DNA of 64,000 nt from a virus. Position 1 is the first letter of the stretch, and the number at the start of each line of letters is the position of its first letter. This document shows, one piece after another, positions 923 to 63,999 of the stretch. The stretch is taken from IMG/VR virus record IMGVR_UViG_3300024339_000015; one strand, written 5' to 3'. The translations under genes were made by a program, and so were the position numbers. The notes under the pieces were generated by a model that did not search any database, was not told where the DNA came from, and saw only the letters and a program-made list of their open reading frames with translations.

Positions 923-1294
923 TTAAGAATTAGCATAATTCCCCGATATCCCGCACTCGTCTTGTAAGTCATTTCACATAACACTGTCCATTGCCTCTCG
1001 TGACTTAAATACAAACTTCTTTCCATTATGGTCTAATCTAGTGATAAAACCACATAAAATACTATACACAGCCTCATTCATAACAAAAACATGGCTACCA
1101 GAGTAGTATAACTTGTCGTATTCGCCCATTTCCTCGTTCTGCTCTACCTTAAAGGTCAATTTTACCCCATTTTCGCCTACTACCTCATACGCCGCTATAC
1201 GTGTATAAGGGCCTTTTACGTCATCTATAAACAAAAGAGCATCCAAAAGTACTTCAGATGCCTTCGATGTGATGAATATTGGGGCTTCAAGCAT
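923..1294 (-). CDS. HesB/IscA-fold-like protein (123 aa if TGA 974-976 is read as Trp)
   Basis: Spacing of IFITSKASE...TRIA...FVMNE...FVFK resembles IscA/HesB; readthrough adds WNDLQDECGISGNYANS up to TAA 923-925. Confidence 0.4.
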
Positions 1295-1361
1295 ATTAGT
1301 TAATTAAAGTTGAGTGAATTGATACAAAATTATAGATTTGCTCTGTTCGTGCGAAACCAGG

Positions 1362-1847
1362 TTAATCTGACTCCATGGTGCTAAGAGCTCCTAATCCGAT
1401 AGCTCCAGCCAATCCTTTGTCAGCATGTCTTGCTAAAAGTCTTTCTAACGGCTCATTCTTATCTTTTAGAAGCTCTATTAGCTTTGCTTCTCGTTTACTG
1501 TCTATAGTGCTTTGTATGCCTTCCATCCGTCTATATTTCTTACTATTACCGTGCAAGTTGGCCCCCCTTGCTGAGCTGTATGCCTTAGAGACTCTGTCAG
1601 TATTGCGATCATACTGGTGTGCCCATGTTGGGTTATCTTTCATCAAAGCATCTATTTTGTGGCCTCTAGTCCTTTCTAACGCTTCGTCAGAATACTTAGC
1701 GTAATCTCCGCCATCTGACAGCATCTTCCATAGCCTTCCAACAATAGAGTCACTTAAGCCTTCTCTAACTAAGGCACTTCGACCTCCTGCTCGTTTTTCA
1801 AGTTCACTTATAAACCCATCTTGCCTTGCTTTTTCATAATTATTCAT
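1362..1847 (-). CDS. Hypothetical virion protein (ELEKRA motif)
   Basis: ORF track, RBS, TAA stop, N-terminal K-x-A motif. Confidence 0.7.
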   Translation of the reverse strand: MNNYEKARQDGFISELEKRAGGRSALVREGLSDSIVGRLWKMLSDGGDYAKYSDEALERTRGHKIDALMKDNPTWAHQYDRNTDRVSKAYSSARGANLHGNSKKYRRMEGIQSTIDSKREAKLIELLKDKNEPLERLLARHADKGLAGAIGLGALSTMESD

Positions 1848-1858
1848 TTTTATTTCTC

Positions 1859-3544
1859 CTATTGGTCAGCTACAACAGTGCCGACTTGTTTTAGTGCTAA
1901 GATTACCTCTGATAACCCGCTCATTGCACGCTGTATTGCGTCTTCTGGAATGTGGCTTTTACCCAATCTTGAAATGATAAGCATTTTAGCTAATTCAGAT
2001 AAAACCATCTCATATTGAGGAACCATGTTTACAAATTCCATGATATTGCCTTTATTTACCATACCTAACGATAATAAAGCGTCTACTGTTGCGGAATCTT
2101 CTACTACTGCCGCCTCTTTGATTAAGTCAGGCATTATAATAGAAACTTTCTTATTAAACTCCCCCACCTTTTTAATTAACTCACTCTTGGTATCTTTCAC
2201 AGACTTTGGAGACTTAACTGGGACTTTTATATGAGCAGTACCACAATTAGCTAATTTACTGATCTCTGTTACTACGCTTTCAGGACAATTGCAGTGAATT
2301 GCTGTTCAAACAGCCTCAGTTTTTGAAAGATCTCTTATAGAATTATCTTTACCGTACTTTTCAAAATCTGGTCCAGAGAACGAGTACAGGCCTACAGAAT
2401 CTTTAAAAACAGCGTTTCCTGGTGCTTGTTTGTCCCTAATCTGAAAAGATAGGCTAGTATCAAGAGGCTGGTCCACTTCCACAAACTTTGCGTTTCCTGG
2501 TACATAGAAAGCCCCTGCAATCTTGTCATGGTCTTCAAGCTTATCTGAATGGACTCTGATAGGATAATAAGCTACTTTATCAAGCCCTGTTCATCCGACA
2601 ACTTCAAAAGTTCCATGTCCGGCAACTTTTTGCATCCCAATAACCTCAAAAGGTTTGGTCATTGTTTCTCCAACCATCCAAGCCCCGTAACTGCCTACTT
2701 TAGGCATTATTCCCTGATTAAGCTCAGCATCCTTGTTGGTGTCGTTGCTAGCAGCTTTTTCAATCTCTTCGTCCGAAGCAAATAAATTACCCATTTCTTC
2801 TCCATCAAGTATCTTAGTAGTCCAAACATAGTCTACGGAGGAATTCGCTTGTTTTACAAAACGATTTCCTAAATCGTCCGAATACACTAATTGCCTGTCA
2901 ATAGGCAAATTTCTCACCATATTTTTCATCTCTCCTTCCTCAGTCATGAACTCTTTACCTGCTAATTTCTCCAGCACTTCTCCGTGCCCATTTGTTATAA
3001 AATTATTATACAAATCTTGGTCCTCATTTATTTTCTTTAACATAGACACTACGTCATCCCTACTGACCGACGAAATTTTCTCTATAAAAGATGCGTACTT
3101 AGCAGGACGCTCTGTCCCCGACGCGTTATTAAAAACAGACTCTACAGGTGAATATTGCATGTTGCCAGAAAACAAGCTAGTCACACCTTTGGGTGGAGAC
3201 TGCGCAACCCCTTTAAAGGGGTCAGTTTTTGTCATTAATTCTTGGATTGTGAGCGGTGTCAACGGATAAACTCTTCCGTTCATTAGAATAACATCTAATG
3301 ATGACAGCTCATAATTATTTATAATAACGGGAACCGTACCGCCCGCAACTTTTAATGCACCTACTGCTGTTCCTTTCTCTATATCTTTATTAACCCATTG
3401 CACAGAAACTTCTTGATCCTGCAACATCGGGAACTGCGTAAGAAAAACGGTGACAATTTGCTTTATCCAGCGAGTATGGTCAGAGTCTAATTTAGTATTT
3501 GCAGTTTTTTCAAACCTTTGTTTCGTTACAAATAAATTAGTCAT
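1859..3544 (-). CDS. Large structural/head protein, 561 aa with two in-frame TGA (2591-2593, 2306-2308)
   Basis: ORFs 2591..3544 and 1859..2200 share one frame and are separated only by TGA codons (VVG*TGLDKVAY; EAV*TAIHC); true stop is TAG. Confidence 0.85.
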
Positions 3545-6811: not shown

Positions 6812-7168
6812 ATGGAAGATATACATATAAAAATACAAAAAGACTTGTCACTTTCAAAAGATGATATAGATAACATTGTCGCAGGAGCCTTAGAAGGGGG
6901 GATAACTTATTGGTGTACCAAAGCTAAAGTAGTCAATAAGGAGTACAAAGGCGGAGAATTCACCAATAGTGTGGTATCACGGGGAGGATCAATAGAACTT
7001 TACGAAGATGATGGATCCTTCAAAGTTCTAGACCTGGAAAAGTTAAAGAAAGGGATTAAGACATATTACGAAACTAATAAGCGCCCATTCGACATAGATG
7101 ACATGGACGCAGATGACTACGACGTGATAATTCAATTAGCAGTATTCGATGAGGTAGTATATGGGTAA
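6812..7168 (+). CDS. Phage hypothetical protein (ALEGGITYW)
   Basis: ORF track, AAGGAG RBS. Confidence 0.75.
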   Translation: MEDIHIKIQKDLSLSKDDIDNIVAGALEGGITYWCTKAKVVNKEYKGGEFTNSVVSRGGSIELYEDDGSFKVLDLEKLKKGIKTYYETNKRPFDIDDMDADDYDVIIQLAVFDEVVYG

Positions 7169-7403
7169 ATTTTCAAATAAATACCAGGCAATTAAAGATA
7201 GACACAGAGATGTCCTATTGCTAGGTATTCAACTAGTAGTTGCAGGACTGCTAGTTTATTTTTTAGCACCAGTAGTGTTCTCAGCAATCCAACTCCTAGG
7301 AGTTTTCCTCAGCTATATAATAACAATTGGCTTAGTAATAGCACTTTTTATATTCGTAATTGAGAAGGGAAGCGATAAATCACCTTTCAAGTGGATGCAC
7401 TGA
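7161..7403 (+). CDS. Small membrane protein
   Basis: Two hydrophobic segments; ends in TGA. Confidence 0.65.
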   Translation: MGKFSNKYQAIKDRHRDVLLLGIQLVVAGLLVYFLAPVVFSAIQLLGVFLSYIITIGLVIALFIFVIEKGSDKSPFKWMH

Positions 7404-7591
7404 ACATTAAATTGGGTGCCATTGGCGGTGATTGTTCACTTATAGTTGCTTACATAACGACTACAGATTTTTAATCTATTCTTGTAAGCAACTATCTTAC
7501 TTAGCACCAGTTACAAAACACTTTCAGAGTATTTAACAGGAGCTAACATATCTATGACCACTATAGTTGCTGATAACCCCGTAAATGTGAG

Positions 7592-8086
7592 TTTACCACG
7601 TTTTTATGCAACTTACTACAACTTTACCACGCATTTACCACAGATTTACCACGGACACCTTTAGGTACCTATACCGAACAATAAAAGCATTTACAGTACC
7701 TAACATAACCTACTCCTTTGTACTTACCACGTGTTTCGAGCACTAGCACCCTAGGGTAGGACAAAAACACATTGTTTTTTATTTTTTATTCTCCACACGT
7801 AGTGCTTGTTTATAAAAGCGTAGTAAATATCATGTATTGTATAGTAGTTATAGTATAAGTTATGTATTATATAGTATATATATTCCCTCTTTTTTTACTT
7901 GAAAGGATCAGACTTAAAACCGGTAATATCAACAGTTACACCTTATTCACAACAACCTAAGTTCCGCACTAACTTAGGCAATAACAACAGTTACAACGGT
8001 TACTTACAATTTTTTGTAGTAAATAGCCAAAAAAGCGTAGTAAACCCGTGGTAAACGTGTAGTAAACCACTCAAAAACGTAGTAAA
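7592..8086. repeat. Two oppositely oriented clusters of TTTACYACR iterons (candidate replication origin)
   Basis: Forward copies at 7592, 7623, 7634, 7645, 7724; reverse copies at 7819, 8015, 8036, 8047, 8058, 8078; 11-bp period inside each triplet; non-coding. Confidence 0.75.
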
Positions 8087-8091
8087 TACCA

Positions 8092-8123
8092 ACAATTACA
8101 CAATTACACAATTACACAATTAC
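8092..8123. repeat. Tandem repeat (ACAATTAC)x4
   Basis: Read directly. Confidence 0.9.
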
Positions 8124-8144
8124 TAATAACCCAAGGTACCCAAC

Positions 8145-8378
8145 ATGAATAAACAAAAACAACAGCAAGCCCAACAAGTACAAAAAATACAACATCCCAT
8201 AATGCCAGACTTAAGCGATTTGTATATTTATGAACAAAACACACAACAATCCATTAGTACTGACACTGTAAAAAATAATGTGCACGCAGATACACCCGAC
8301 TTTAATGTAATATTAGGTAAAATAGCACAAATACTAAAAAAAACGTGGTCAATAACAACTACTAATAACAACTACTAA
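8145..8378 (+). CDS. Hypothetical low-complexity protein
   Basis: ORF track; AAGGT RBS. Confidence 0.45.
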   Translation: MNKQKQQQAQQVQKIQHPIMPDLSDLYIYEQNTQQSISTDTVKNNVHADTPDFNVILGKIAQILKKTWSITTTNNNY

Positions 8379-8437
8379 TAACAACTACACAACTTCGTAG
8401 CTAGTAGTACACATGGTGCAACTGACAAGACATACTA

Positions 8438-8506
8438 ACTAAGGATAAAAACTAATGATAAAAACTAAGGATAAAAACTAAGGATAAAAACTAAGGATAA
8501 AAACTA
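8438..8506 (+). repeat. Five tandem 13-bp units ACTAAGGATAAAA containing the RBS of the AAA gene
   Basis: Units at 8438, 8451 (variant ACTAATG), 8464, 8477, 8490, then ACTA-ATG at 8507. Confidence 0.95.
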
Positions 8507-9997
8507 ATGGCAACAAAATTTGAAACAGTAAACAACTATTTAATTAAAAAATACAAGGAAAATGCTTGTGCTATGACCACAACAAGCACGACGAGTACAT
8601 TAGCAAAAGCTAAAACAAAAACAAACCTCACAACAAAAACTAAAACAACAAAAGCTACCGGCAATGCCAACACAACTTACCAAGGTGTAGACCCAAACGG
8701 CTTTGTCACTACAGAGGGCGACACCGAGCTGCAGTGGGAAATGCTGGTATCGTGGAGACATCATGCTCGCAAATACAATCAGCGCACCTTTCATATTGCA
8801 GATGTTACACCGCTGTCTCAAGACATAGTGCCCAACTGTAGTTTTGGAATCCGGCCCGTTAAGTACAAGCCAGACACAATACTGGCAGAGGATCGGCTAG
8901 GAGTATTTAAGATTACTTTTGAAGAAACTGTTAAGAACAAGTTAACAAATCAAGACAAGACAACTCAATATTATATGTATCTAGCAAAGTGGAGGACAGG
9001 AGGAGGCAACAATGCTTCAATAGAAGGAATCGCAGCCACTGAGACAAAAACATGGTACAAGTACAAAAGAATGTTAAACAAGCATCGGAGACACAATGCC
9101 AAGCCCAAGCCAGGTACTTATGTATTACGAGAGCTTGGGCAAGGAATGGTCTACTACGACCCCGTAGAAAAACCTAACAAGATTCCAACAGTGCATCCTA
9201 CTATAAAAACCTTAGACAAAGACCTAGATTTTTTCTTTAATAACGTTAGTTTATATACTCGTTATGGAATGCCAGGTACCCGGAAAGTCGCTCTCATAGG
9301 ACCACCTGGAACAGGGAAAACTTCTATGGCTTATAGAGTAGCTAGAGAGCACTCGGATAAAAAGAGTGTAGTATTTTGTACAGAGATTTCTTTACTGGCC
9401 ACACATCTAGCATCTTGTGCAAAGTACGGTGTGCCGACTATAGCTATTCTCGAAGATGCAGAGTCTGCGTTCAATGCGCAATCTCCTACGGGAGGTGCAT
9501 CATCGTCTGTCCTAAACTTTTTAGATGGCATAAATCAGAAGCCGAATAAATCAGGAGCTTACGTAATTTTTACTACTAATTTCCCTGAAGCAATAGAACC
9601 TAGGATAATACAGCGTCCTGGCCGTATTGACAAACTTCTGGAAGTCGGAACATTAAAAGGGTCAGATGCAGTAGAGTGTGCAAGAATATATTTTGAACCA
9701 GCTTTTAAGATCACAAAAACTCGAGCTAAGAAACTTGAGCCTATTGTAGATAATATGTCTGGGGCACAAATAAAGGAGTTAGCTCAATCCACCTTTTCTT
9801 ATACAGTGTCAACACGAGCTAAAAAGATAACAACAGATTTAGTGCAAGACGTCAAGGATGGCATGAAAGAAGATCTAAAAGAAGTATATAAGTATGCTGA
9901 TGACACTGACATGTTCTATCAAAAACTTATGAAGAAGATTGGTTTTGATTCTATGAAAGAAAAGTATGGGATCACTACTAAAAAACTACCTTTTTAA
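8507..9997 (+). CDS. AAA+ ATPase (single classical AAA domain)
   Basis: Walker A GPPGTGKT, Walker B ILEDAE, TTN sensor, RPGRID second region of homology. Confidence 0.9.
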   Translation: MATKFETVNNYLIKKYKENACAMTTTSTTSTLAKAKTKTNLTTKTKTTKATGNANTTYQGVDPNGFVTTEGDTELQWEMLVSWRHHARKYNQRTFHIADVTPLSQDIVPNCSFGIRPVKYKPDTILAEDRLGVFKITFEETVKNKLTNQDKTTQYYMYLAKWRTGGGNNASIEGIAATETKTWYKYKRMLNKHRRHNAKPKPGTYVLRELGQGMVYYDPVEKPNKIPTVHPTIKTLDKDLDFFFNNVSLYTRYGMPGTRKVALIGPPGTGKTSMAYRVAREHSDKKSVVFCTEISLLATHLASCAKYGVPTIAILEDAESAFNAQSPTGGASSSVLNFLDGINQKPNKSGAYVIFTTNFPEAIEPRIIQRPGRIDKLLEVGTLKGSDAVECARIYFEPAFKITKTRAKKLEPIVDNMSGAQIKELAQSTFSYTVSTRAKKITTDLVQDVKDGMKEDLKEVYKYADDTDMFYQKLMKKIGFDSMKEKYGITTKKLPF

Positions 9998-10179
9998 TGC
10001 AGGGCTCGAGTACAGGGAGACCATGCTATTAGGAAGTCATTCGACAACCTAAAAATAAAAAAAGAACCTGTACCGGAAATACAATATTCATTATGCGTCC
10101 GATAAAGCGCAGAAAAATACGATAGTAAATAAAAGTACAACAACGTACATAACAACAGTAACAAGGAACATATTATAAT

Positions 10180-10482
10180 ATGACAAATGCAACACAAGAA
10201 GCAACACAGGAAGGAATGTCCACTGGGACAGTAAAGTGGTTTAATGATAAAAAAGGCTTCGGCTTTATAACCCCTAGCATCAACTCATTAGCCACAAGCA
10301 CTACGGAAGACGGGGACGATTTAACCGTGGATGCAGATTCACGTGACTTATTCGTTCATATGAGCGAAATTCAGATGGACGGCTTCAAAACTCTTTCCGA
10401 AGGACAAGAGGTTGAATTCATAGAATCTAACGGTGAAAAAGGGCCATGTGCAACAAATGTGATCCCGGGACCACAAGCATAA
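10180..10482 (+). CDS. cspA: Cold-shock domain protein with a loop insertion
   Basis: [46 protein letters not shown]. Confidence 0.95.
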
Positions 10483-10520
10483 AAAGTTAGAAGAAAAAGT
10501 AAAGAGATAACGTAACTGTG

Positions 10521-10593
10521 GGGGCTGTAGCTCAGTTGGGAGAGCACCTGATTTGCATTCAGGGGGTCGCAGGTTCGATCCCTGTCAGCTCCA
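10521..10593 (+). tRNA. tRNA-Ala(UGC)
   Basis: GGGGCTG/CAGCTCC acceptor with G3:U70, anticodon arm CCTGA-TTTGCAT-TCAGG, TTCGA T-loop; CCA not encoded. Confidence 0.97.
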
Positions 10594-10625
10594 CTATTTA
10601 CGTTACTTGACTAAAGCAGAAAAAG

Positions 10626-10652
10626 AAAGGTATAGAATATACCTTTTTTTTT
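10626..10652 (+). terminator. Intrinsic terminator
   Basis: AAAGGTATA-gaa-TATACCTTT followed by a T-run. Confidence 0.7.
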
Positions 10653-10662
10653 ACATCAAATT

Positions 10663-10674
10663 TGGTATAAGAAT
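10663..10674 (+). promoter_or_regulatory. TGGTATAAGAAT motif
   Basis: Repeated intergenic motif. Confidence 0.6.
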
Positions 10675-10709
10675 AGTACTAGGAAAGATTTAAATTACGA
10701 CAAGTAAAA

Positions 10710-10935
10710 GATTTGTTGTGTGCCTCACAGCTCAATGGTCGAGGGTCGGTATTCTAAGCTATGCTCGCACGTTCATGCACTTACCAAAGATAGTAGTATG
10801 AGTCGTCTTTAGTAGCTCACAACATCCTGGCACTATTGTGCCGAGTCTCCCATAGTTGGAAATCACAGAGTGGGAGTTTTAAAAGGCAAGATAATTATTT
10901 CATGCGCCTACATGATTTAAGTGTCTTGCCTTTAT
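10710..10935 (+). ncRNA. Candidate structured RNA or long leader, class unknown
   Basis: TGTTGTG/CACAACA long-range stem plus hairpins GGCAC/GTGCC, CTCCCA/TGGGAG, AAAGGCAAGA/TCTTGCCTTT; no ORF; follows a promoter motif. Confidence 0.5.
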
Positions 10936-10974
10936 AAGATTTAAAGTAACTAACCAGTAAAAGGGGAAAAAACA

Positions 10975-11121
10975 ATGCGAAAATCTAAAACCAGGAAGCA
11001 AACGAAAGCAAAGTTAAACTCTGATCTCAGTATAAACGGCAGGACTGCCGTTCAGGTAAAAAAGATTAGAGCTAAAAACCAAAAGAAAGGTTCTTTAAAA
11101 CCAACTTTTGGGAAACGATAA
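10975..11121 (+). CDS. Small, very basic protein (48 aa)
   Basis: AAGGGG RBS; MRKSKTRKQTKAKLNSDLSINGRT...; followed by a terminator. Confidence 0.65.
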   Translation: MRKSKTRKQTKAKLNSDLSINGRTAVQVKKIRAKNQKKGSLKPTFGKR

Positions 11122-11122
11122 G

Positions 11123-11145
11123 AAAAAGGGGTACGCCCTTTTTTT
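11123..11145 (+). terminator. Intrinsic terminator, possibly bidirectional
   Basis: AAAAAGGG-gtacg-CCCTTTTTTT between convergent genes. Confidence 0.75.
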
Positions 11146-11234
11146 ACTTTAAATATTTATTATAACTCGTCTAAAAACTTTGTCATCAGACACCACACAA
11201 TTACATACCCAACAGCAAGAAGAAGAAATCACAC

Positions 11235-11582
11235 CTACTTTAATTTTGTCGGAGTATGTCTAACATCTAACTCAGGCAAGGGCTTTTCTATAACCATATT
11301 TTTTATCTTACTGTTTTGTACTACTCTTTTATATCCGTGAGTTATTATTCCATCCTTTATTGTGTACACAAAAAACACAGTTTTCCACATACTAACCCTA
11401 ACTATCCGTCCAGGTTTCCCGTCTATTAGCACTACATCATCAACATTATAATCATTACCTAAAAATATCATAAGAGCATCTACCATGCTTTCAATGGTCC
11501 TGCGGAAAATCATAACAAAAAATGCTGCTGTAAAAACCCACCCGTATGCCCCCATTAGTCCTTCTATTACTTCTTGATCCAT
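11235..11582 (-). CDS. MscS-like (small mechanosensitive channel beta-domain) membrane protein
   Basis: N-terminal TM helix, then YNVDDVVLIDGKPGRIVRVSMWKT resembling the MscS Sm-like domain. Confidence 0.55.
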   Translation of the reverse strand: MDQEVIEGLMGAYGWVFTAAFFVMIFRRTIESMVDALMIFLGNDYNVDDVVLIDGKPGRIVRVSMWKTVFFVYTIKDGIITHGYKRVVQNSKIKNMVIEKPLPELDVRHTPTKLK

Positions 11583-11825
11583 ATCACCTCCTATTTTTTG
11601 TTTACGTATTGATTAAAAACAGTTCACACAATAATATTTAGTGAGCCAATAACCCCCACAAATCAATTAGTATAGGCACTTTGTGCAAATAAATGTATGT
11701 AATATAACCCTATTACGAGGTTAGTCCAAAGTAAAGCATTCTTCACATCTTTTTGCTGTTCTATATCTTTCATATTTTAGTATACAAGGTGCCAGTCACA
11801 ATGCCAACACTTAATTACTGAAATT

Positions 11826-11837
11826 TGGTATAAGAAT
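11826..11837 (+). promoter_or_regulatory. TGGTATAAGAAT motif
   Basis: Upstream of the kinase-HD pair. Confidence 0.6.
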
Positions 11838-11910
11838 GCTATGGTAGTACTTTCTACTGAAAAGTTATTTAAAGAGTAAATCTTAAAGAGTAAATCTTAA
11901 GGAGTAAACA

Positions 11911-12369
11911 ATGAAAACGCTTTTTTTAATAGGAGGCCCTCCAGGGTCAGGCAAAACGACTGCAGCGGAAATGCTGCAAAACCTAATTGGGTTAGAATCT
12001 GTAGTGATGGTTGCAGCAGACGACTATTTCGATTTGCATACAGAAGGTAAATTTGATCCAGCCTTGCTTGGGGACGCACACAAGTACTGTCGAGGTGTAG
12101 CAAGAGTTGCTATGCTTGAAGCAGTTCCCGCAGTGATTGTTCACAACACCTTCACCAGCTCCACCAAATACGGTACAAAACCTTACGAACTTCTCGCTGA
12201 GAATTTAGGCTATAACACCGTCTGCTTCATGACTGTAAACTTACATCAGTCTGAATCAGTGCATAACGTACCATCAGACACAGCTATTCGAATGGCTAAA
12301 GAGTGCGGACAATTTGTCACATCGAGAGGAAAAGCTCCTTACGAGGATGTCACTGAATATGGCGAATAA
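11911..12369 (+). CDS. P-loop kinase (AAA_33 / polynucleotide kinase-like)
   Basis: GGPPGSGKTT, AADDYF, VIVHNTF. Confidence 0.8.
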   Translation: MKTLFLIGGPPGSGKTTAAEMLQNLIGLESVVMVAADDYFDLHTEGKFDPALLGDAHKYCRGVARVAMLEAVPAVIVHNTFTSSTKYGTKPYELLAENLGYNTVCFMTVNLHQSESVHNVPSDTAIRMAKECGQFVTSRGKAPYEDVTEYGE

Positions 12370-12883
12370 AATAAAGCTACCATTAGGCATAATCGCTCTC
12401 TTACAGGATACCCCGTCCAAGGGTCCCTACCATCCCGAGGAAACTGTATTAGATCACATCCAGATAATGGCGGATAGATTTAGTAATTCGACACAAACGG
12501 TTAGAGCAAAACTAGGGTTAACGTGGGGCGATATAAAAGTAGTGGAGCAATCTATACTATATCACGACCTGGGTAAGATTGACACTGTAAAGTGGAACGA
12601 AAAAACCAATGGGTACAGCTTCTACGGACACGAACGATACTCATTAAATAGAATGAAAGATCTGAACGCTATTAATCCAATACCGCACTATGACAGAGTA
12701 CGATGGATCGTAAGTAACCACATTCGTATACATGCTCTAACAAAAGGACAAATGAAAAACCCGTTTAAAATAGATAAACTAAAATCAAACCCGGACTTCA
12801 AGTTATTAAATTGGTTCGAAAAACTTGATGACATGATTCTCAACTATGAGGACTGGGCCAATAGTTTAAAAGAAGAGTCTTAA
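12359..12883 (+). CDS. HD-domain phosphohydrolase
   Basis: HPEETVLDH...LYHDLGK...FYGHE; likely start is ATG 12359, overlapping the kinase. Confidence 0.8.
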   Translation: MANKIKLPLGIIALLQDTPSKGPYHPEETVLDHIQIMADRFSNSTQTVRAKLGLTWGDIKVVEQSILYHDLGKIDTVKWNEKTNGYSFYGHERYSLNRMKDLNAINPIPHYDRVRWIVSNHIRIHALTKGQMKNPFKIDKLKSNPDFKLLNWFEKLDDMILNYEDWANSLKEES

Positions 12884-12907
12884 TGGCTTTTCTTTTAAAT
12901 TAAAATT

Positions 12908-12919
12908 TGGTATAAGAAT
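12908..12919 (+). promoter_or_regulatory. TGGTATAAGAAT motif
   Basis: Upstream of the Ro60-like gene. Confidence 0.6.
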
Positions 12920-14430: not shown

Positions 14431-14440
14431 AGTGTTTCAA

Positions 14441-51618: not shown

Positions 51619-51630
51619 CCAGTAATATAA

Positions 51631-52353
51631 GTGAGACTCAGAGCATTTACTCAGAATAGCAAGACAATTCTTTCTGTAGATTTCTCTAGAACTACGTGCC
51701 CACAAGTATGTGAGTATTGTTACGTAGGAAACATGGAAAGAATATATCCAAGCTATAAAGAAAAAATAAAGAAAAATGCAAACTGGGCAACTGGAAACTA
51801 TGAAAACTTCTCGTCGCAATTAAATGACGAATACACATCAACAAGGAAAAGTAAAGCAAAAAAACTAAGACGGGTGAGTAAATTACCCGTTAGAATATAC
51901 GGCTCTGGAGATTTTATCCCAGAACATCTAATGTTTATGGAAAGATTAGACTTTAAGTTTTATGTAATTAGCAAGTCACTAACATCCAACTTTATGCATA
52001 AATACATAGATGAATTATTGAAAATGGATAATCTGACAAATTTAGTGTTGAGTTTCGACGCACAAAATTTAGATAATTATAATGGTATAAGTAAATTATA
52101 TGGTGACGATCGGATTTCATTCGCTTTTACTGGCATGGCAGACGAGTTTAAAGAAGTCAGACTTGACAAACAGTTCGATATATTTTTTAATATATCTAAT
52201 AAAAAAATCGAGAAAGAAAAATCAAAACTGTATAAGGAACAATGCCCATGTGATAGTGGAGCAATGGCCCATAACGAAAGTTGCTCTTTCTGCAACAAGT
52301 GTTGGAAGTCATCATTAACAAAAGACAAGGATTGGAATAAGGAACATATATGA
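51631..52353 (+). CDS. Gp88-like / radical-SAM-like Fe-S protein
   Basis: CPQVCEYC, VRIYGSGDF, C-terminal CPC...CSFCNKC. Confidence 0.65.
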   Translation: MRLRAFTQNSKTILSVDFSRTTCPQVCEYCYVGNMERIYPSYKEKIKKNANWATGNYENFSSQLNDEYTSTRKSKAKKLRRVSKLPVRIYGSGDFIPEHLMFMERLDFKFYVISKSLTSNFMHKYIDELLKMDNLTNLVLSFDAQNLDNYNGISKLYGDDRISFAFTGMADEFKEVRLDKQFDIFFNISNKKIEKEKSKLYKEQCPCDSGAMAHNESCSFCNKCWKSSLTKDKDWNKEHI

Positions 52354-52571
52354 GTTTACTAGGAAAAGAGTTAAGAACAGAACCCATCATTGATGAAATA
52401 GAAGTATTATATGATGAGTTTAAAAAGTTGTACAACGAAGTGCTGGTTAAAGGCGGTATAAAAAGATCTATCAAACTCAGAAGCACAGCAAGACAGCTTC
52501 AAATGGCGTTTAAATCATTTAGACCTGCCTCTGTGAGCGATACACGGGAGCACTTAGGAAGAATTAAGTAA
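52350..52571 (+). CDS. Small basic helical protein, weakly Hc1-like
   Basis: ORF track; ATGA overlap. Confidence 0.6.
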   Translation: MSLLGKELRTEPIIDEIEVLYDEFKKLYNEVLVKGGIKRSIKLRSTARQLQMAFKSFRPASVSDTREHLGRIK

Positions 52572-52575
52572 AAAA

Positions 52576-52789
52576 AATACACATAGTTTATCTATTATGT
52601 TAATAGCATAAAAAGACATACGATTCGTATATCAATGATACGTATACATTCCTTCTTAGGAACAAAGTCTGAAAAAATTAGAGGACCGCAGGAAAAAAAC
52701 TAACTATCCAGAAAAGATGCCTTCTGGATAGTACTATTTTTTTTCCACACGGACTCCTACTTTTTTGCAGTCCTCAAAGTATGTGTGTT
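52576..52789 (+). ncRNA. Retron msr/msd-like unit 1
   Basis: Arms AATACACATA / TATGTGTGTT, G52586 directly after the first arm, ATACG-ATT-CGTAT (52618-52630), long hairpin 52681-52775. Confidence 0.75.
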
Positions 52790-52795
52790 AGAAAC

Positions 52796-53129
52796 GATAA
52801 ATCTCGCAGTTTATCTATTAACACAAGTAGAGTTAGTGGAGCATATGTTTCGTATGCACATAACAATCAGCATTAACATGAAACGGTACAGCTAGAAGGA
52901 GGAAAGAAAAATCCCTCCTCCAATCTGTACCGGTACACATGTTAATGCTGCAGACAGCAAAGAGTATCCCGGAATTCCATCCGACTCTTCGTGGGCCCCA
53001 AGACTCTGGCGATCAGCTCACCAGCGGGCGCGCCCTTCATCGCCGCCGTCCCAGGATCTTCAGGCGTTTTCGAAACTGGGCCAGGTCAGGATTAGGTGAT
53101 CAGGAGAACATTTTTGCAGTGCGAGCTAT
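52796..53129 (+). ncRNA. Retron msr/msd-like unit 2 with GC-rich cargo
   Basis: Arms GATAAATCTCGCA / TGCGAGCTATC, G52809, AGTTTATCTATTA shared with unit 1, GCATATG-TTT-CGTATGC (52841-52857), hairpin 52868-52950 with a perfect 13-bp base. Confidence 0.72.
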
Positions 53130-53131
53130 CA

Positions 53132-53160
53132 TAAAAAAGGAACTAACCATTCCTTTTTTT
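53132..53160 (+). terminator. Intrinsic terminator closing the ncRNA pair
   Basis: AAAAAAGGAA...TTCCTTTTTTT. Confidence 0.7.
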
Positions 53161-53241
53161 TAACTTAAAAATTCTTTTTTTTAGTTTGAAATATGTTTAT
53201 ATTAAAGAGAGACTAAAATTAACTAAAAATCAAACTTATAA

Positions 53242-54549
53242 ATGAAGAAGAAAATTCTAGCATGGTGTGACTTTAATGTTCCTACTGGGTTTGCAAACGT
53301 AGCAAAAAATTTATTAGAAGACTTACATGAAGAGTATGAATTATCTATACTTGGGATTAACTACCACGGACATACTAAGTATGACACAAGTAAGTGGTTC
53401 GTATACTCCATAACAAATCAAGACCCACTAGGGGTACGACGACTACCTAAAATAGCTGCCGAAGAGAATCCTGATATCCTATTTTTATTCCAGGACATAT
53501 TTCATATATCAGACCATCTCGAGGAGCTGAAAAAAGCCTTACCAGAAAAAACAAAGATAGTAAGTTATTTCCCCATAGATGGGGGACCATTCTCTCTCGC
53601 ATGGGGGAATGTATTCTCCGGGTCAGACGCAGTTATTACTTACTCTGATTGGGCCATAAAGACTATAAAAGATACCTTTCCTAAAATAAATACTACAATT
53701 CATAAGTTATATCACGGAGTGAACATAGATACTTTTTATCCACATGCATACGGAAAGATAAAAAGTTTAAGAAAAGAGTGGGGATGGGAAGGTAAATTTG
53801 TTCTTTCTAATGTCAATAGATTCCAACCCAGAAAAGCAGTACCATTAAACCTTAGAGCTTACTCGTTATTTTCTAAAGGGTATAAGGAATGTAAGTGTGG
53901 TAATCATATGCCTATATCAAAGAAATCCTGTGACCTAAATATGTGTAAAAAAGAAGACATTATAAAAGTAGTAGAGCATGATAGAAACGACATATTTCTT
54001 TACTTACACATGATGCCTAAAGAATCTTCTATGGGGCCAGGAAGAGCTAATCTATTGCAGAATCACATACTAAATGCGGGATTCACAGATAAGGATGTCA
54101 ACAATATTATAGGAGTAAATGCAAACAATATTTATGGAGGCGGAGTAACGGAGGACATGGTAAATGATATTTACAATGCATCTAATATAAATGTTAGTTC
54201 TACTTTAGGAGAAGGTTGTGGGCTTAGTTTTTTAGAGTCAGCAGCTACAGGAACTCCTAGCATTGCCCCAAAGAACTCAGCTATCCCAGAGATGTTAAAC
54301 GGAACCGGAACATTAGTTAAAAATAATGCCATAATGAATCAAGCAATGGATAATGCTCATATGCGACCTATGGTTGATCCGTGGGAACTAGCATTAGCTT
54401 ACGAAAAAGAGTATAAAAGGTGGAAAAAGGAATGCCCAGATGGCGGGAAAGAGTTACGAAAAGATTGTACAAATAATATAGATACGAATTTTCTTTGGGA
54501 TGATAAGAAAGAAAAATTAAATAAAATATTTAAAGATGTATTAAAGTAG
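53242..54549 (+). CDS. GT-B (family 4-like) glycosyltransferase
   Basis: TGFANVA, LYHGVN, NVNRFQPRKA, GEGCGLSFLESAATGTP. Confidence 0.9.
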   Translation: MKKKILAWCDFNVPTGFANVAKNLLEDLHEEYELSILGINYHGHTKYDTSKWFVYSITNQDPLGVRRLPKIAAEENPDILFLFQDIFHISDHLEELKKALPEKTKIVSYFPIDGGPFSLAWGNVFSGSDAVITYSDWAIKTIKDTFPKINTTIHKLYHGVNIDTFYPHAYGKIKSLRKEWGWEGKFVLSNVNRFQPRKAVPLNLRAYSLFSKGYKECKCGNHMPISKKSCDLNMCKKEDIIKVVEHDRNDIFLYLHMMPKESSMGPGRANLLQNHILNAGFTDKDVNNIIGVNANNIYGGGVTEDMVNDIYNASNINVSSTLGEGCGLSFLESAATGTPSIAPKNSAIPEMLNGTGTLVKNNAIMNQAMDNAHMRPMVDPWELALAYEKEYKRWKKECPDGGKELRKDCTNNIDTNFLWDDKKEKLNKIFKDVLK

Positions 54550-54551: not shown

Positions 54552-54731
54552 CTACTCAAATTCTAGATACCAAACAGTTATCATTGCCTTCCCCAACTTA
54601 TCATAAGTAAATTCATCTCTTAAGATTTCACAGTTGGGGTTGTTCAAAATATCCTCGTATTGAGCTTTTTCTAGCTCGTCCTCTAACGAAAATTTTTTGA
54701 CATTAATTTTACCGTCCTCATTAAAGTTCAA
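54552..54731 (-). CDS. Small late protein (59 aa)
   Basis: Manually translated from TTG after GAGG: MNFNEDGKINVKKFSLEDE... Confidence 0.65.
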   Translation of the reverse strand: MNFNEDGKINVKKFSLEDELEKAQYEDILNNPNCEILRDEFTYDKLGKAMITVWYLEFE

Positions 54732-54936
54732 TAGGAACTACCTCAAGCTTATCTAGGTCATCACTATCATTTATCACGTCAGGATCATAGTCTAGCTCTT
54801 CTCACCTATCACCCTCCCCATTATAATAGTTAGAAACTTTTTCTAATCCTTTATCATCTGTACATAAAATTTTAGTTATTTTACCTGTGGAAGTATTTTT
54901 AAAAACTTTATACGTTCCATATTTTGTCATAGACAT
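54721..54936 (-). CDS. Small late protein, 71 aa via TGA 54802-54804
   Basis: TAATG-coupled to the portal gene; ...LEKVSNYYNGEGDR*EELDY... Confidence 0.7.
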
Positions 54937-57305: not shown

Positions 57306-57654
57306 TGCTTTCTAAAATTGGGTCAGTAGTGCCTATATGTTTATCAAGAAACTTTTTATAAATTGGGTTCATTGTGAGAGCTATTGCCATAGCAGGAGCT
57401 ATCTTTAAAGCTTTTAATCCTATACCGCTGTAATGTTTTTTAAAAAAGTTTTTTCTAACTGAATTGCCCACATTCCTTGCTCCCTCTACCTGTTTATTTG
57501 TGATAGATGCATCTAGAGGGTAAAGAATCGGAAGACTTGATATACCAGCTAAGCCTCCAGCTACTAAACTTTTTACTGGGTCGGGCAGGCTAAATCTTTT
57601 TTCTTTTTTGCCTTCGGCATACTTTACTAACATAAAAGAATGGTCAACGTTCAC
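57298..57654 (-). CDS. Protein resembling one mitochondrial-carrier (SLC25) repeat
   Basis: LVAGGLAGISSLPILYPLD...YSG...LKIAPAMAI...YKKFL. Confidence 0.55.
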   Translation of the reverse strand: MNVDHSFMLVKYAEGKKEKRFSLPDPVKSLVAGGLAGISSLPILYPLDASITNKQVEGARNVGNSVRKNFFKKHYSGIGLKALKIAPAMAIALTMNPIYKKFLDKHIGTTDPILESNE

Positions 57655-58649
57655 TATTCATCCTCCAGAGCAGCGTCCATAAAACACCCTCTTGCCACGG
57701 CTGTTAAAGGCTCCTCTACCAGCTTTATCTCACTAATATTAATAGGAAATTCCTTTTGATTAAATTGAGCTTTAAATACTTCGATAAACCCTTTAATCAT
57801 AGACGTACCTCCACCTATCACTATTGGCACTGCCTCTGGAAAATGAGGCATAGCTTCGTTTATTTCAAATTGATTAGCAATATTATCTAAGAGGTATTTA
57901 ATTAATACCTGATAATAACTTCTAATTGCGTGTACCTCTCGTTCATTGTCTTCATCATAAATTGTATTATCTGATAAGTCTATTTTATTAGATTCTTTTA
58001 TAAATTGAGCTTTAGCTAGAGGTATTCCAGTATCTAAAGAGACGTGTTGATCTATAAAATCTCCACCCCTACTAACACTAAAAGTTAGTGCAACCAATCC
58101 TTGGTACATTATAGCGATATTAGCCATTCCTGCGCCCATTGATATTGATATCCCCGTTAGATTATTATTATTATCAGATAGTCCAGCATATCCTAAAGCT
58201 TCTGCTTCTTTTATAGACCTAGCTTTGTACCCTATACTTTCAATCATGGTTGATAAAACATCTTCGTGATAGTCCACTAACGTTTCTTTATCTATTGGCT
58301 TAGATGGTACACAATAAACACATACTTCTCCGTCTTCAGAAGGTTTCCCCAGTAGTGAGGAAATAATTTCCCGTAAAACCGGTAAGGCGTCCCTTTCAGA
58401 TGGGTTTAATAGTCCCTTAGACATAGGCCTCTTTAAATCCTTATTACCAAATATTTGTGCATAGTCATAAGCGCTCTTGCCAATAACATGCAATCTTTTA
58501 TTAATCTCAACAAACGGCACATTTAATCGTTTTAGTGACTTAATAGTAGTCGGGCTTTTATCTATTGTTAAAAAAGCATTTCGTTGTATTTTTACACCGT
58601 CCTCTGATGCAGCTACGTAATTCCCTGTCCCACAATCTAATCCTTTCAT
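57654..58649 (-). CDS. Actin-fold ATPase (MreB/ParM/FtsA-like)
   Basis: GLDCGT phosphate-1, SMGAG phosphate-2, IVIGGGTS adenosine motif. Confidence 0.85.
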   Translation of the reverse strand: MKGLDCGTGNYVAASEDGVKIQRNAFLTIDKSPTTIKSLKRLNVPFVEINKRLHVIGKSAYDYAQIFGNKDLKRPMSKGLLNPSERDALPVLREIISSLLGKPSEDGEVCVYCVPSKPIDKETLVDYHEDVLSTMIESIGYKARSIKEAEALGYAGLSDNNNNLTGISISMGAGMANIAIMYQGLVALTFSVSRGGDFIDQHVSLDTGIPLAKAQFIKESNKIDLSDNTIYDEDNEREVHAIRSYYQVLIKYLLDNIANQFEINEAMPHFPEAVPIVIGGGTSMIKGFIEVFKAQFNQKEFPINISEIKLVEEPLTAVARGCFMDAALEDE

Positions 58650-58652: not shown

Positions 58653-59204
58653 TTATTTACCTTTCATTTTTTTTAAATCTTTTAAAGCCTTTTTTATGTC
58701 TACCCTACTTTTTTCAAGTTTAATATCCATACTACTAGTAGTGGCCTTTTCTATGTAAGGGTTTGACCCTTTCTTTATGTCTATATGTTTTGGTACAGAA
58801 TACTTACGTACATCAACTTCCTTAGAAGTACTCGATGTTTTTTTGTCACTACTTACCACACTATTTACTACTATCGGAGAATTAGTACTTTTTTTAAACC
58901 AAAATGCTGCTATGAAAATTGATAGCAATACTAATAAAATCCTGAATTCTACTACGTAATAATATATAGGGTTTTGCACTGTTTCTATTGGAATAAGTAT
59001 TTCATCCCCAGGAAATATTTTATCGGGATTAATTCCTAAGGATTCTTTGTTTAAATGGTAAACACTACTTCAAGAAACTCCGTAAATTTCAGATATTTTA
59101 CTAACAGATTCACCGCTTCTTACTGTGTGCTGTTTAGCTCTAATATAATCAGTACCAAACAAAAACGACGTTACCAGCAGTAAGTATACTAATAACCTTT
59201 TCAT
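58653..59204 (-). CDS. Signal peptide + LysM + TM protein, 183 aa via TGA 59070-59072
   Basis: Manually translated: HTVRSGESVSKISEIYGVS*SSVYHLNKESLGINPDKIFPGDEILIP, in frame with 58653..58979. Confidence 0.88.
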
Positions 59205-60283: not shown

Positions 60284-60898
60284 TTAGCCCTCGTTTTTTA
60301 TTTTATTTATGTAATCGTAAGCAACATACCCAGGACATGCAGGCTTCCCGAAGTCAGCGTGACCATATATGTCTGCTTTAGTTATAGACAATTTATCCAT
60401 ATTAAGCAAGTGTTCTATCAATTTTTTTAGAGACGAGAGCTGTGCTTGAGAAGGTCCACTAGATGTTCCTTTGTGACCCTCGCCGTCAAAGTCACCAACC
60501 AACATTATTCCTATACTTGATGTATTTTGTCCCTTAGCTTGCCATACGGTATGACTTAATTGATTACAGTGGTATACATCCCCTTCTTTTGATATCCCAT
60601 AATGATAACAAAAATGGGGACACCCGTTAGGAGAGATATGATTAGGTTGGATATGGTAGTTATTGACTTGCTCTACTGTGGCATCACCAAGTTCTTGGTG
60701 CACAATTATTTTATTTATAGATGCTAGCGATCTTTTACTTCATTTTCTTGACTCGTGCCATTGTAACTCACTAATTACATTATCAATAACAAATGGTTTT
60801 TTTATTGCCTCTTCTGAAACTTTTTTATCTGGAGCTGGTATTGTCCTCTTTAGTAAGATTTTAATAAATTCTCAAACGTATGTTAGTATTATTTTCAT
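60284..60898 (-). CDS. Endolysin, type-2 N-acetylmuramoyl-L-alanine amidase, 204 aa via TGA 60872-60874 and 60740-60742
   Basis: KIIVHQ, YHYGI, SIGIMLVGDF, YGHADFGKPACPG; the first zinc-ligand strand is only complete with the upstream TGA-containing N-terminus. Confidence 0.9.
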
Positions 60899-60911: not shown

Positions 60912-61178
60912 TTAGTTTTGGGCAGGCCTGGTAGGAATTGAACCCACGCACTCCGTTTTGGACGCGGAGGGGGACAGTTTTGAAGACTGCTCGTCACCCA
61001 GCTGACGCCTCAGGCCTATTTTATTTTTTATATAGTCCTGTGACGCATTATTAGCATCATCAATATTATTGTATGCATTATCTAGAATTTTGGTTTGTTG
61101 TAAACAATGGTCGTCTATTTGTACAGAAAAATTGTCTGTACCATAAATAGCGTCTATATGTATTTCGAGTCTCTTCAT
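60912..61178 (-). CDS. ORF whose 3' third is the UCA tRNA
   Basis: TAATG-coupled start; no stop before the tRNA. Confidence 0.45.
   Translation of the reverse strand: MKRLEIHIDAIYGTDNFSVQIDDHCLQQTKILDNAYNNIDDANNASQDYIKNKIGLRRQLGDEQSSKLSPSASKTECVGSIPTRPAQN
60919..61018 (-). tRNA. tRNA with UCA anticodon (reads UGA), long variable arm, Sec-like/suppressor
   Basis: AGGCCTG/CAGGCCT acceptor (8 bp with U:G, then C-CCA), D-stem CGTCA/TGACG, GCAGT-CTTCAAA-ACTGT, CTCCG/CGGAG extra arm, GTGGG-TTCAATT-CCTAC. Confidence 0.9.
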
Positions 61179-61501: not shown

Positions 61502-61706
61502 TTATTTCTTTCTCAATAGATTTTTTTTTATTTTTATTTTGCAGCCTGTTTCTTTTTTCTAAAAGGCGTTTTATCTTATTTCTTTTAATTTTAATCTCCG
61601 CTGAATCGTTAGATAATACTTTAGACCCAGCGTAGATTAATACTACATAAGAAATTATGTGTAACAGTTCCCTTATAAGTGAAGCTAGGTTACTTAGCTT
61701 CTTCAT
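61443..61706 (-). CDS. Membrane-anchored coiled-coil protein (i-spanin-like)
   Basis: N-terminal TM segment plus basic helical tail; lysis-cassette position. Confidence 0.55.
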   Translation of the reverse strand: MKKLSNLASLIRELLHIISYVVLIYAGSKVLSNDSAEIKIKRNKIKRLLEKRNRLQNKNKKKSIEKEINDIVPEDKVKHFNDLLSKL

Positions 61707-61914
61707 CTGTCCCTACTAATTCCCGCAAACTTTCTATTTTGCCTCTTGTAAAGTCATGTACTTCTTTTTCTTGTGCAATAGCTTGACGTATTTCGTTCTC
61801 TTGTTCACGTAATTTCTGTATATTGTCGTTGTATTCTTGCACCTTTTGCACACGAGCATTATTTTCTTCTTCTAACTTATGTATCTTTTCTTCCAGCATT
61901 TTGGTATCTTTCAT
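61690..61914 (-). CDS. Coiled-coil protein
   Basis: ORF track. Confidence 0.7.
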   Translation of the reverse strand: MKDTKMLEEKIHKLEEENNARVQKVQEYNDNIQKLREQENEIRQAIAQEKEVHDFTRGKIESLRELVGTDEEAK

Positions 61915-62052
61915 ATTATTGTAGTTTGGTTAAGTTTGAAAGTGTTATATTATTTAATATATTAAGTTTGATTATGAAAAGCAATGGTTATTTATGGTAT
62001 TTTTCTTTTATATTTTATAGCTGTTTCCCACCTAGACATTATGCCCTAAATA

Positions 62053-63999
62053 CTACCCACAATGGTACGTACAACCAACAAACGCTACCATGTACACTAC
62101 TCCATCATACTCCACCTCTTCTAGTTTATACTTAGTATCATCATCAAAATTACAGTCCATTGTTATTTTAGCAACAGTATAGTTGTGTAGTACATCATCT
62201 GATTGTTTCATGCCTATACCAGGAATAGGTGATGAAGTTATATAGTCCCCATTTTCTAGATTTCCAGAATAATTTGATATCCAAACAGCACCCTCCCCTA
62301 AGGAGTTTATTTTTAAGTACTCATTTAGCATAGAGTTTCCTTCACTGTCTACAAGTAGATTTTTATCATCGTCAAATTTTCTGGTGTTAGTAATGCCAGA
62401 TATAACGCCGTAAACCGACTTATCCATTTTTGTGGAAGATACCTCAACATTCGTTCATGTGTCCATTATATCAATAGAAGAGATACCCGTATTCATTGAC
62501 CGATCTGTATAACCAGGACTAGAAGTGACAATTTTACCTATATAATTCTCTATGTTATCCTTGTAGTAGTTAATTGTATTATCAGATGGCCATGATTTAT
62601 GGGTACCAGTAAAAAATAAACTGGTCCAAAATACTCCCCCAGTATCATCGGTTAGGAACTCATCGTTAGCTGCAGTTGAATTGTTAGAATCGTATAAGAA
62701 CGATCTCATTCTAACAGTACCGTTGACATCAAGCTGACTAGTTGGAGCGTCAACATTTATACCTACGTTCCCACCAGAAATATTTAGTTTATTACCATTC
62801 TCAAGTTTAAAATTTATAAAAGACCCTGGAGTACCTCACCCTATATAACACCCCCTAGTATCAGAACTATCTCTTACTTCAAAGTACCCATAGTGGTCGG
62901 AGTCGGAAGTATATTTAGATGTAATAGCTCCATAATTACATCTTATTTTTCCCCCACTTACATCAAATAGCTCCCCAGGGTTGGTAGTGCCAACACCGAC
63001 ATTTCCATCATACTTTATAGTCAGTCTGTCAAATAAGTCCTTATCATAAAGGTTATTAACGGCAAATCTAAGGTCAGTTTTGTCATAACTGGTATTCATA
63101 TTATCAGTGTGCCTTACAGCCCTAATTGCAGCCCCTATCTGGTCAGTGTCCTCGGATGGATTCATAGTATTTGATTTAAAAGCGATCCCAGCGAATGCGT
63201 TTTCTGTTGCATTATCGTTGTGTATAACTAGCTCAAAGTCACTAAATATGTTATTGTTGGATGTAGTTGTGCCGTCATCTCCCCTAATTTCCATAACCCC
63301 AGCAGCAATTGTCCCTACGCCACCTGCACTTAATTTATTAGTAATTTTGACATCACCACCCGTTACATATAATTTATATGAACCATTTAGATTATCATCT
63401 CCGATAGTTACTTGTCCTGCTGTAATTCCTTTTTGAAAATATGGGGGGAAAGAATCGTAGGATGACGCGGCTAAAAGTCTAAAATCAAAAGTAGATTTTA
63501 ATCAAAAGTACCTTGCGCCAGAGGTATGCCTTCCCAAGTTGGTGTAGGAAACGCCGTTTAGTTCAACATCGTAGCTTCAAAAAGCGTCTCCATCCAAATT
63601 ATTAGATGTAGCCCCTGTCAGGTCATCAGCGTCTCCTCCAAAATTGTATTTTCCAAGCGAAAAATCACTGCTAGTAGTACCAAAACCTAACGAAAGAGTG
63701 TTGGAGTTATAAGTTGAGTTAGTTGCATATGATTCTAATGTTGTGGAACTAACACCTACAGATCGTTTATAATAAAAAGTAGAGTTGGCTCCTTCTATGT
63801 ATACTTGGTGTCCTCCTCTTAGTCCTGGAGTAATTATCATTCCTATCGGATAGTCCAGCGATGGGGTCTCCATCCGAACCATACCAGCACTCTCCCCGCC
63901 TCGAGCTCCATTTAAAATTAAAGCATAGTAATTTCCGGAACCGGAAGTCCAATCTGATACATATCTCACGAAATATTTTCCAAAATCAGCATGTGTCTC
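62053..63999 (-). CDS. Tail fibre-like protein, partial, one frame with four TGA (63577, 63502, 62836, 62455)
   Basis: Four track ORFs join in frame; GNVGVGTTNP/GNVGIN repeats; C-terminal NSLGEGAVW...NGDYITSS...VAKITMDC domain; TAG stop. Confidence 0.88.

Follow-up and report, generated by a model that had tools for sequence, protein, structure and literature searches.

Two readings of the codon TGA are combined in IMG/VR record IMGVR_UViG_3300024339_000015, of which a stretch of 64,000 nucleotides (nt), here called the window, was analysed: in the minus-strand gene modules in-frame TGA is read as tryptophan (Trp), whilst in the plus-strand modules it serves as stop, and a transfer RNA (tRNA) with the anticodon UCA is encoded in the same window. 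The window very probably represents part of a marine phage of roughly 180-210 kb in which both readings operate; its relatives in IMG/VR are phages of 180-210 kb. The same phage is present in the assemblies of many samples (93 index blocks), and was detected in seawater/marine runs from at least 17 studies, RNA libraries included. One of its genes encodes a fused beta-beta' RNA polymerase (RNAP) of the multisubunit type; a megablast search with this gene against the GenBank phage collection returned no match, and a protein search returned only distant RNAP relatives at ~30% identity. The window has a GC content of 36% and its gene blocks alternate between the two strands.

A sequence-only reading of this DNA had listed 14 in-frame TGA codons on the minus strand. 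All are present, each coordinate being TCA on the plus strand, that is TGA on the minus strand, and all are in frame; they lie in nine minus-strand open reading frames (ORFs) and not in ten as had been stated, and all nine are open when TGA is translated as Trp (Table 1). Only TGA occurs in frame in these recoded genes, never TAG or TAA. Comparison of homologue columns, which had been suggested as a check, found them enriched for Trp, the nearest homologue having W at 12 of the 14 sites and Leu and Tyr at the other two. None of the columns is dominated by Gly, Ser or Cys, which excludes readings of TGA under code 25, as serine or as selenocysteine.

In the conserved phage protein at 1859..3544, residue 413 (TGA 2306) is W in all 43 homologues; residue 318 (TGA 2591) is more variable (W 8, F 8, Y 2, N 10, others 15), with W in three of the seven top-scoring homologues, the best one included. 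The expectation that TGA 39360 falls on the Trp of the FWxKN motif of DUF192 was borne out by the two solved structures, 3pjy and 3m7a, both of which have W in that column, and the corresponding expectation for the YGVSW motif of the LysM protein by the recoded relative L023, which has TGG at the same W. The RNAP forms a single open frame only if TGA 43957 is read through; the column is W in six of eight RNAP relatives and TGG in G006, a complete relative of 210 kb which contains the locus L089. The enzyme has the NADFDGD motif of bacterial-type multisubunit polymerases and matches Rpb2 Pfam domains. In the tail-fibre-like gene four of the eight Trp codons are TGA, and in the nearest homologues TGA 62455, 62836, 63502 and 63577 correspond to W, Y, W and W, respectively; no homologue of this protein was found in the records of five relatives. 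In two genes the argument comes from what follows the codon. TGA 974 had been taken as no more than a C-terminal extension, but the 16 residues past it are conserved in the relative P0100; it is therefore a sense codon which is read through, and not a stop. Likewise, the homologues of the 198-amino-acid (aa) protein align either side of TGA 39953, which must therefore be read through.

TGA and TGG also exchange between relatives in both directions. The window has TGA where a relative has TGG at five sites (43957, 54802, 59070, 60740 and 60872), and TGG where a relative has TGA at three codons, in the RNAP, a 357-aa protein and the amidase. In the endolysin, codons 9 and 53 are both TGG in L089, and codon 53 is TGA in L023.

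The same TGAs are carried by three independent assemblies, more than 99.9% identical to one another, and there is no variant at the eight TGAs in 54500-64000 in contigs from four marine runs of different studies (two DNA and two RNA libraries), although the contigs of these runs do differ elsewhere as strain variants; one run yields a contig of 204 kb. Sequencing error, named earlier as a refuting outcome, is thus contradicted by the independent assemblies and, for these eight codons, by all four runs. Errors of sequencing or assembly, or decay of the genes into pseudogenes, would be another explanation of the TGAs, in favour of which there is only the truncation of genes by gene callers (e.g., P0101); public protein sets list the RNAP as a fragment of 743 aa and the amidase with 139 aa. 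Given these assemblies and runs, the absence of in-frame TAG and TAA, frames that are open and conserved either side of each TGA, and relatives (L023 and G006) that are recoded more heavily still, the probability of this explanation is practically negligible. Taken together, the homologue columns, the TGA/TGG swaps and the independent reads support the assignment of TGA to Trp in the minus-strand modules.

The plus-strand genes behave differently. Trp codons comprise 14 TGA and 63 TGG in the minus-strand genes, as against 0 TGA and 171 TGG in the plus-strand genes (61 ORFs, 9,965 codons; Fisher p = 3e-8), TGA making up 18% of Trp codons in the recoded modules. The only plus-strand ORF with an apparent internal TGA, 18235..18486, has its true start at ATG 18262, past that codon. 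The partition between strands that had been claimed is in this sense real, but it tracks gene modules rather than strand as such. Re-prediction under codes 11 and 4, also suggested earlier, gave a real gain in coding density only in the minus-strand blocks, from 86.7% to 95.5%, against 81.3% to 81.7% in the plus-strand blocks.

The use of stops is consistent with this picture. All 27 minus-strand ORFs counted end in TAA or TAG, and the five TAATG overlaps that had been listed, at 4344, 39157, 40124, 54934 and 61176, are all real when checked against the sequence. TGA terminates none of these 27 ORFs and 8 of the 61 plus-strand ORFs, a difference which is not significant alone (p = 0.10), and seven of the eight plus-strand TGA stops sit within ATGA overlaps. 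Nine ATGA junctions had been reported, in which the TGA stop overlaps the next start; eight stand (Table 1), whilst the one at 19851 does not, since the gene 19489..19854 ends in TAG. Two more plus-strand genes, 7161..7403 and 34342..34677, have a TGA stop without an overlap. The lack of internal TGA, the ATGA overlaps and the two TGA stops that are matched by TAA in G006 homologues support TGA being a stop in the plus-strand modules. The base that follows TGA is alike in sense and stop uses, so local context does not separate the two readings. The plus-strand genes favour A-ending over G-ending codons (67-80%) and yet have no TGA, hence its absence from them results from selection and not from mutation bias; a mutational strand bias as the cause of TGG-to-TGA changes was rejected on the same ground.

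It might be argued that the host itself uses code 4, so that TGA means Trp throughout the phage and translation continues past the plus-strand TGA 'stops' until a TAA or TAG is reached. Every plus-strand gene ending in TGA does meet a TAA or TAG within 1-30 codons, so the added tails would be short. Against this, not one of the 171 plus-strand Trp codons is TGA despite the preference for A-ending codons, whereas in a code 4 genome with a GC content of 36% TGA should predominate, and even the recoded genes write only 18% of their Trp codons as TGA. In addition, start and stop overlap as ATGA at eight junctions, stops written TGA here are matched by TAA in G006, and G006 carries a tRNA-Trp(CCA) as well as a UCA tRNA. 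We regard a code 4 host as highly unlikely; to judge indirectly from the TGA stops and ATGA overlaps of the plus-strand genes, the host would appear to use the standard code.

The decoder which the sequence-only reading had placed in the same window is a tRNA gene with the anticodon UCA, lying 20-25 nt upstream of the endolysin start, and L023 and G006 are arranged likewise. The general tRNA model of Rfam does not report it. If its acceptor stem is drawn with 7 bp, it shows the determinants A1-U72 and G73 of bacterial tRNA-Trp. It resembles tRNA-Trp, and the tRNA-Trp(UCA) of code 4 bacteria, in these determinants and in reading UGA as Trp, and its anticodon loop is CU-UCA-AA as compared with CU-CCA-AA; it differs from canonical tRNA-Trp in the UCA anticodon and in an extra arm of ~26 nt, the loop of which holds UCCAA, the CCA triplet having moved to the arm. 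The tRNA-Trp that G006 itself encodes has an anticodon loop that matches this extra-arm loop. When viral contigs were scanned for UCA tRNAs of class II, 67 candidates emerged, in two groups. The first consists of true selC genes with G1-C72, often at prophage ends, whose loops lack CCA. The second comprises phage tRNAs with U72 and G73, of which 39 of 39 have UCCAA in their extra-arm loop, as against 0 of 21 of selC type. Within this family of 39, A1-U72 occurs in 34 members and G1-U72 in five, and G73 in all, matching the determinants of the G006 tRNA-Trp. When 36 distinct members were aligned, each of the four helices tested (the D arm was left out) proved to covary, with compensatory changes at five of five pairs of the extra-arm stem, whilst UCCAA is invariant or nearly so. 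The extra arm may preserve recognition by the host tryptophanyl-tRNA synthetase (TrpRS), which would charge the decoder with Trp. No published suppressor tRNA with an anticodon-like extra arm was found in the literature.

A second possibility is that the TGAs are translated as selenocysteine, or as serine or cysteine, by a selC-like tRNA. The decoder is labelled tRNA-SeC by ARAGORN, and its best Rfam match is the tRNA-Sec model (E = 4e-6 in a 601-base search). With bacterial selC and the allo-tRNAs/selC* (Mukai et al., PMC5389517) it shares the UCA anticodon, the long extra arm and the long D stem, and like them it is detected by models of tRNA-Sec; its acceptor can also be paired over 8 bp. 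That pairing, though, needs a U:G pair and yields C73, and the match scores 38.5 bits, below the family threshold of 47. It further differs from selC and selC* (PMC5389517) in its 7-bp acceptor, A1-U72, G73 and UCCAA loop, the true selC genes from the scan having G1-C72 and no such loop, and in serving Trp positions: Cys, Sec or Ser do not dominate the homologue columns, and the 14 sites are spread across unrelated proteins that are not redox proteins. A selC-like identity is accordingly very improbable.

The position of the decoder ahead of the endolysin is restricted to the window, L023 and G006. A general location ahead of lysis genes is not supported, since in ten other members of the family the next gene is DUF5662, GIY-YIG, a glycosyltransferase, DUF6582-like or uncharacterised. 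An 88-aa ORF (60912..61178, minus strand) crosses the UCA tRNA gene without a prior stop; only its first ~51 residues are conserved in L089, where the tRNA part corresponds to another frame, and the actual protein probably extends no further than the tRNA, or else the transcript is cut at that point.

Comparison with the relatives places the window within a graded series. The RNAPs of L002, L001 and L004 are 31-58% identical to that of the window and their genes have no in-frame stops; the L001 and L002 loci have essentially no internal TGA, and no UCA tRNA was found in these three standard-code relatives. L023 and G006 are both recoded, and both have the UCA tRNA. The partition of the window recurs across the whole genome of G006, where ORFs of 150 aa or more contain 130 internal TGA and 268 TGG on one strand, as against 12 and 271 on the other (p about 1e-22), and the RNAP, its sole polymerase, has three TGAs at sites other than 43957. 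Twenty-five of the 26 tRNAs of G006, including tRNA-Trp(CCA), are clustered on the standard-code strand, whilst the recoded strand has the UCA tRNA as its only one, located 20 nt ahead of the amidase gene. No match to a TrpRS-class synthetase (PF00579) or to a release-factor domain (PF00472) was found in the complete G006, nor was one seen among the window proteins scanned. The TGA share of Trp codons in recoded genes is 0 in L002, 18% in the window, ~33% in G006 and roughly half or more at the L023 locus, a series in which every relative except G006 is represented by a partial genome. The fused beta-beta' phage RNAP family (~2000 aa; the window and loci L001-L009) occurs on contigs with a GC content from 36% to 59%.

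The annotated minus-strand genes encode portal, tail fibre, amidase, LysM, DUF192 and actin-like proteins and the RNAP; the recoded modules thus hold structural and lysis genes (portal, tail fibre, amidase, LysM) together with the RNAP, the actin-like protein and many uncharacterised proteins. To judge from these few annotated genes and the plus-strand ones of Table 1, the recoded modules would be late and the standard-code modules early. The standard-code modules, comprising auxiliary, nucleic-acid and anti-defence genes in which Trp is always TGG, would be translatable by an unmodified host. The TGAs of the recoded modules would be decoded by the single phage UCA tRNA, made within the same gene string, and full-length endolysin, tail fibre and RNAP would appear only once enough of this tRNA has built up to prevail over release factor 2. 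Proteins with TGA would then lag behind the accumulation of the tRNA, or depend on it, and the purpose may be to delay lysis and late proteins. A more specific version, which we put forward tentatively and with somewhat less than even confidence, is that the tRNA is 'two-headed', combining a UGA-reading anticodon with a TrpRS-recruiting hairpin, such that late transcripts bring their own decoder and genes with TGA are delayed relative to TGA-free late genes.

Several points weigh against such a scheme. A switch of the code during infection is something that we infer. The tRNA lies inside the recoded string and not among the standard-code genes, so the decoder would be made with its targets and not earlier, which weakens a simple early-to-late switch. 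The only RNAP is itself recoded, and fits poorly among late structural genes unless it is packaged in the virion or acts late. About two-thirds of the minus-strand genes, portal included, have no TGA; some recoded-strand genes of G006 are likewise free of it. As to the assignment to Trp, the columns of TGA 39953 (L/M/V) and 62836 (Y) are not Trp in the homologues, and the class-II shape of the decoder normally points to serine or selenocysteine identity.

There is, in addition, the possibility that both readings are real without any temporal switch, the suppressor tRNA being present throughout infection and the plus-strand genes avoiding TGA for another cause, e.g., a read-through so incomplete that early proteins in high demand could not bear the loss. 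There is indeed no early operon that puts the tRNA before the recoded genes, and some 55 nt upstream of the tRNA there is a match to a sigma-70-like promoter, although in a scan for promoters and terminators around the decoder such sites were no commoner than in shuffled sequence; moreover, most Trp codons are TGG even in the recoded genes, as expected if the decoding of TGA is costly. On the other side, the tRNA is co-oriented with, and embedded in, the recoded modules in the window and in both recoded relatives, it stands apart from the main tRNA cluster in G006, and published recoded phages show the same bias towards late and lysis genes (bioRxiv 10.1101/2021.08.26.457843). We consider this alternative rather unlikely, and favour a dependence of the TGA-containing proteins on accumulation of the phage tRNA.

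Table 1. Recoded genes, decoder tRNA, gene blocks and ATGA junctions of the window (W, Trp; Pfam, PHROG and ARAGORN as sources of annotation).
Feature	Position	Strand	Basis and remarks
123-aa uncharacterised protein	923..1294	-	TGA at 974 = codon 107; W in P0100 (125 aa, 89% identical)
561-aa conserved phage protein	1859..3544	-	TGA 2306 = residue 413; TGA 2591 = residue 318
DUF192 protein	39159..39503	-	Pfam DUF192 E = 1.4e-20; TGA 39360 = residue 48
198-aa protein	39530..40126	-	TGA 39953 = residue 58; homologues L, L, M, V, not W
Fused beta-beta' multisubunit-type RNAP, 2020 aa	40126..46188	-	TGA 43957 = residue 744
71-aa protein, downstream of portal gene	54721..54936	-	TGA 54802 = residue 45; TGG in L089
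LysM-domain protein	58653..59204	-	Pfam LysM E = 8e-10; TGA 59070 = residue 45 (YGVSW); TGG in L023
Amidase_2 endolysin	60284..60898	-	Pfam Amidase_2 and PHROG endolysin; TGA 60872 = codon 9; TGA 60740 = codon 53
Tail-fibre-like protein, 5' end beyond window	62053..63999	-	TGA 62455, 62836, 63502, 63577; homologues tail-fibre (PF13884)
UGA-reading tRNA, anticodon UCA	60923..61017	-	ARAGORN (60919..61018, 'tRNA-SeC')
Minus-strand gene blocks	1-6535, 31545-32854, 38100-46188, 54552-64000	-	ORF map
Plus-strand gene blocks	all stretches between minus-strand blocks	+	ORF map
Largest standard-code block	6812..31555	+	0 internal TGA; AAA ATPase, RNA ligase, Tad3, phosphoesterases, DNA ligase, HSP20 (Pfam), tRNA-Ala
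Standard-code block with two ClpP paralogues	33093..38054	+	Pfam; 0 internal TGA
Standard-code block	46559..54549	+	MoxR ATPase, VWA protein, reverse transcriptase, GP88, glycosyltransferase; 0 internal TGA
Six ATGA junctions, TGA stop overlapping next start	15484, 15930, 16130, 18262, 18883, 19029 (15484..19032)	+	Sequence check
ATGA junction	37017..37020	+	TGA stop of 36532..37020; TAA of G006 homologue within two codons
ATGA junction	52350..52353	+	TGA stop of GP88-family gene 51631..52353; G006 homologue has TAA at same aligned position

That one phage genome may hold two genetic codes was, as the sequence-only reading acknowledged, already known: dual coding in blocks has been published, both by Borges et al. 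and in the work on Mgcod (bioRxiv 10.1101/2022.06.29.495998). The TGA-recoded code 4 phages of the Jade and Agate clades show recoding of late and lysis genes, and a model in which proteins depend on the accumulation of a suppressor tRNA has been published for recoded phages (Borges et al., bioRxiv 10.1101/2021.08.26.457843). The window phage resembles the Jade/Agate and Mgcod systems in having TGA at Trp columns, recoding in structural and lysis genes and other blocks that are compatible with the standard code; with Jade and Agate phages it also shares a UCA suppressor tRNA of its own and close relatives in standard code, and with the Jade phages a tRNA directly upstream of a lysis gene. Unlike the Jade and Agate phages, it belongs to a cosmopolitan marine and not a gut lineage, is lightly recoded (18% of Trp codons in the recoded modules), has its fused beta-beta' RNAP recoded, and uses a class-II suppressor tRNA with an extra arm resembling the Trp anticodon. 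The 'code-change module' of the Jade phages combines a suppressor tRNA with TrpRS and release factor 1 (RF1), neither of which was found in the complete relative G006.

In crAss-like phages TAG is read as Gln, or TGA as Trp, in late genes, and read-through has been shown by metaproteomics (PMC9523058). The window phage resembles these in the recoding of its presumed late genes, in carrying a suppressor tRNA and in a host that would appear to use the standard code, but belongs to an unrelated lineage with a bacterial-type multisubunit RNAP, and its recoding is known from sequence only. What is new here is therefore the marine lineage, the recoded polymerase, the finding of no phage TrpRS or RF1 and the design of the tRNA, dual coding itself having been published before.

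Strain variation among the marine runs has a hot spot in the tail-fibre gene (62600..63060, minus strand), within which 62873..63003 exists in two alternative 131-nt contig versions with six differences. Between an 87-aa ORF and the tail-fibre gene, the window and the contig from an RNA library (run X16) differ in length by one base at 61950, and the assemblies L025 and L026 differ from the window by one base somewhere in 60872-62455. Between the portal and lysis genes lies a Volactin-family actin-like protein (57654..58649, minus strand; Pfam E = 5e-65). In the small minus-strand block without TGA lies the gene of a protein whose N-terminus has a methylation motif like that of type IV pilins (31768..32193, minus strand).

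Among the standard-code genes is a homologue of the anti-Thoeris protein Tad3 (21103..21903, plus strand; Pfam E = 4e-31). The first of the two ClpP paralogues (33093..33668 and 35735..36313, both plus strand) is very near cellular ClpP (Pfam E = 9e-79). Its matches, at 58-66% identity, come from many bacterial phyla, and an attempt to infer the host from ClpP failed, the best matches being scattered in this way. A reverse transcriptase (RVT_1; 49882..50784, plus strand), kept in G006, adjoins the genes for the MoxR-type AAA and VWA proteins; a search of 46-64 kb for a template/variable repeat pair between its region and the tail fibre found none, and the gene is thus perhaps not part of a diversity-generating retroelement. 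The tRNA-Ala(UGC) at 10521..10594 (plus strand) is canonical, with G3:U70. The matching tRNA-Ala in G006 is near one end of the 25-tRNA cluster on the standard-code strand, and the remainder of a similar cluster may lie outside the window.

The results would extend TGA recoding of late genes from gut phages to a widespread marine lineage. As standard gene callers fragment the recoded genes, an abundant group of marine phages will be annotated incorrectly if the right modules are not translated with code 4. The graded series of relatives is well suited for studying the onset of recoding, and the decoder suggests, in a form open to direct test, how the amino-acid identity of a suppressor tRNA can outlast the loss of its anticodon. 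If the two-headed reading of this tRNA is true, it would act as a translational timer for lysis and for production of the polymerase.

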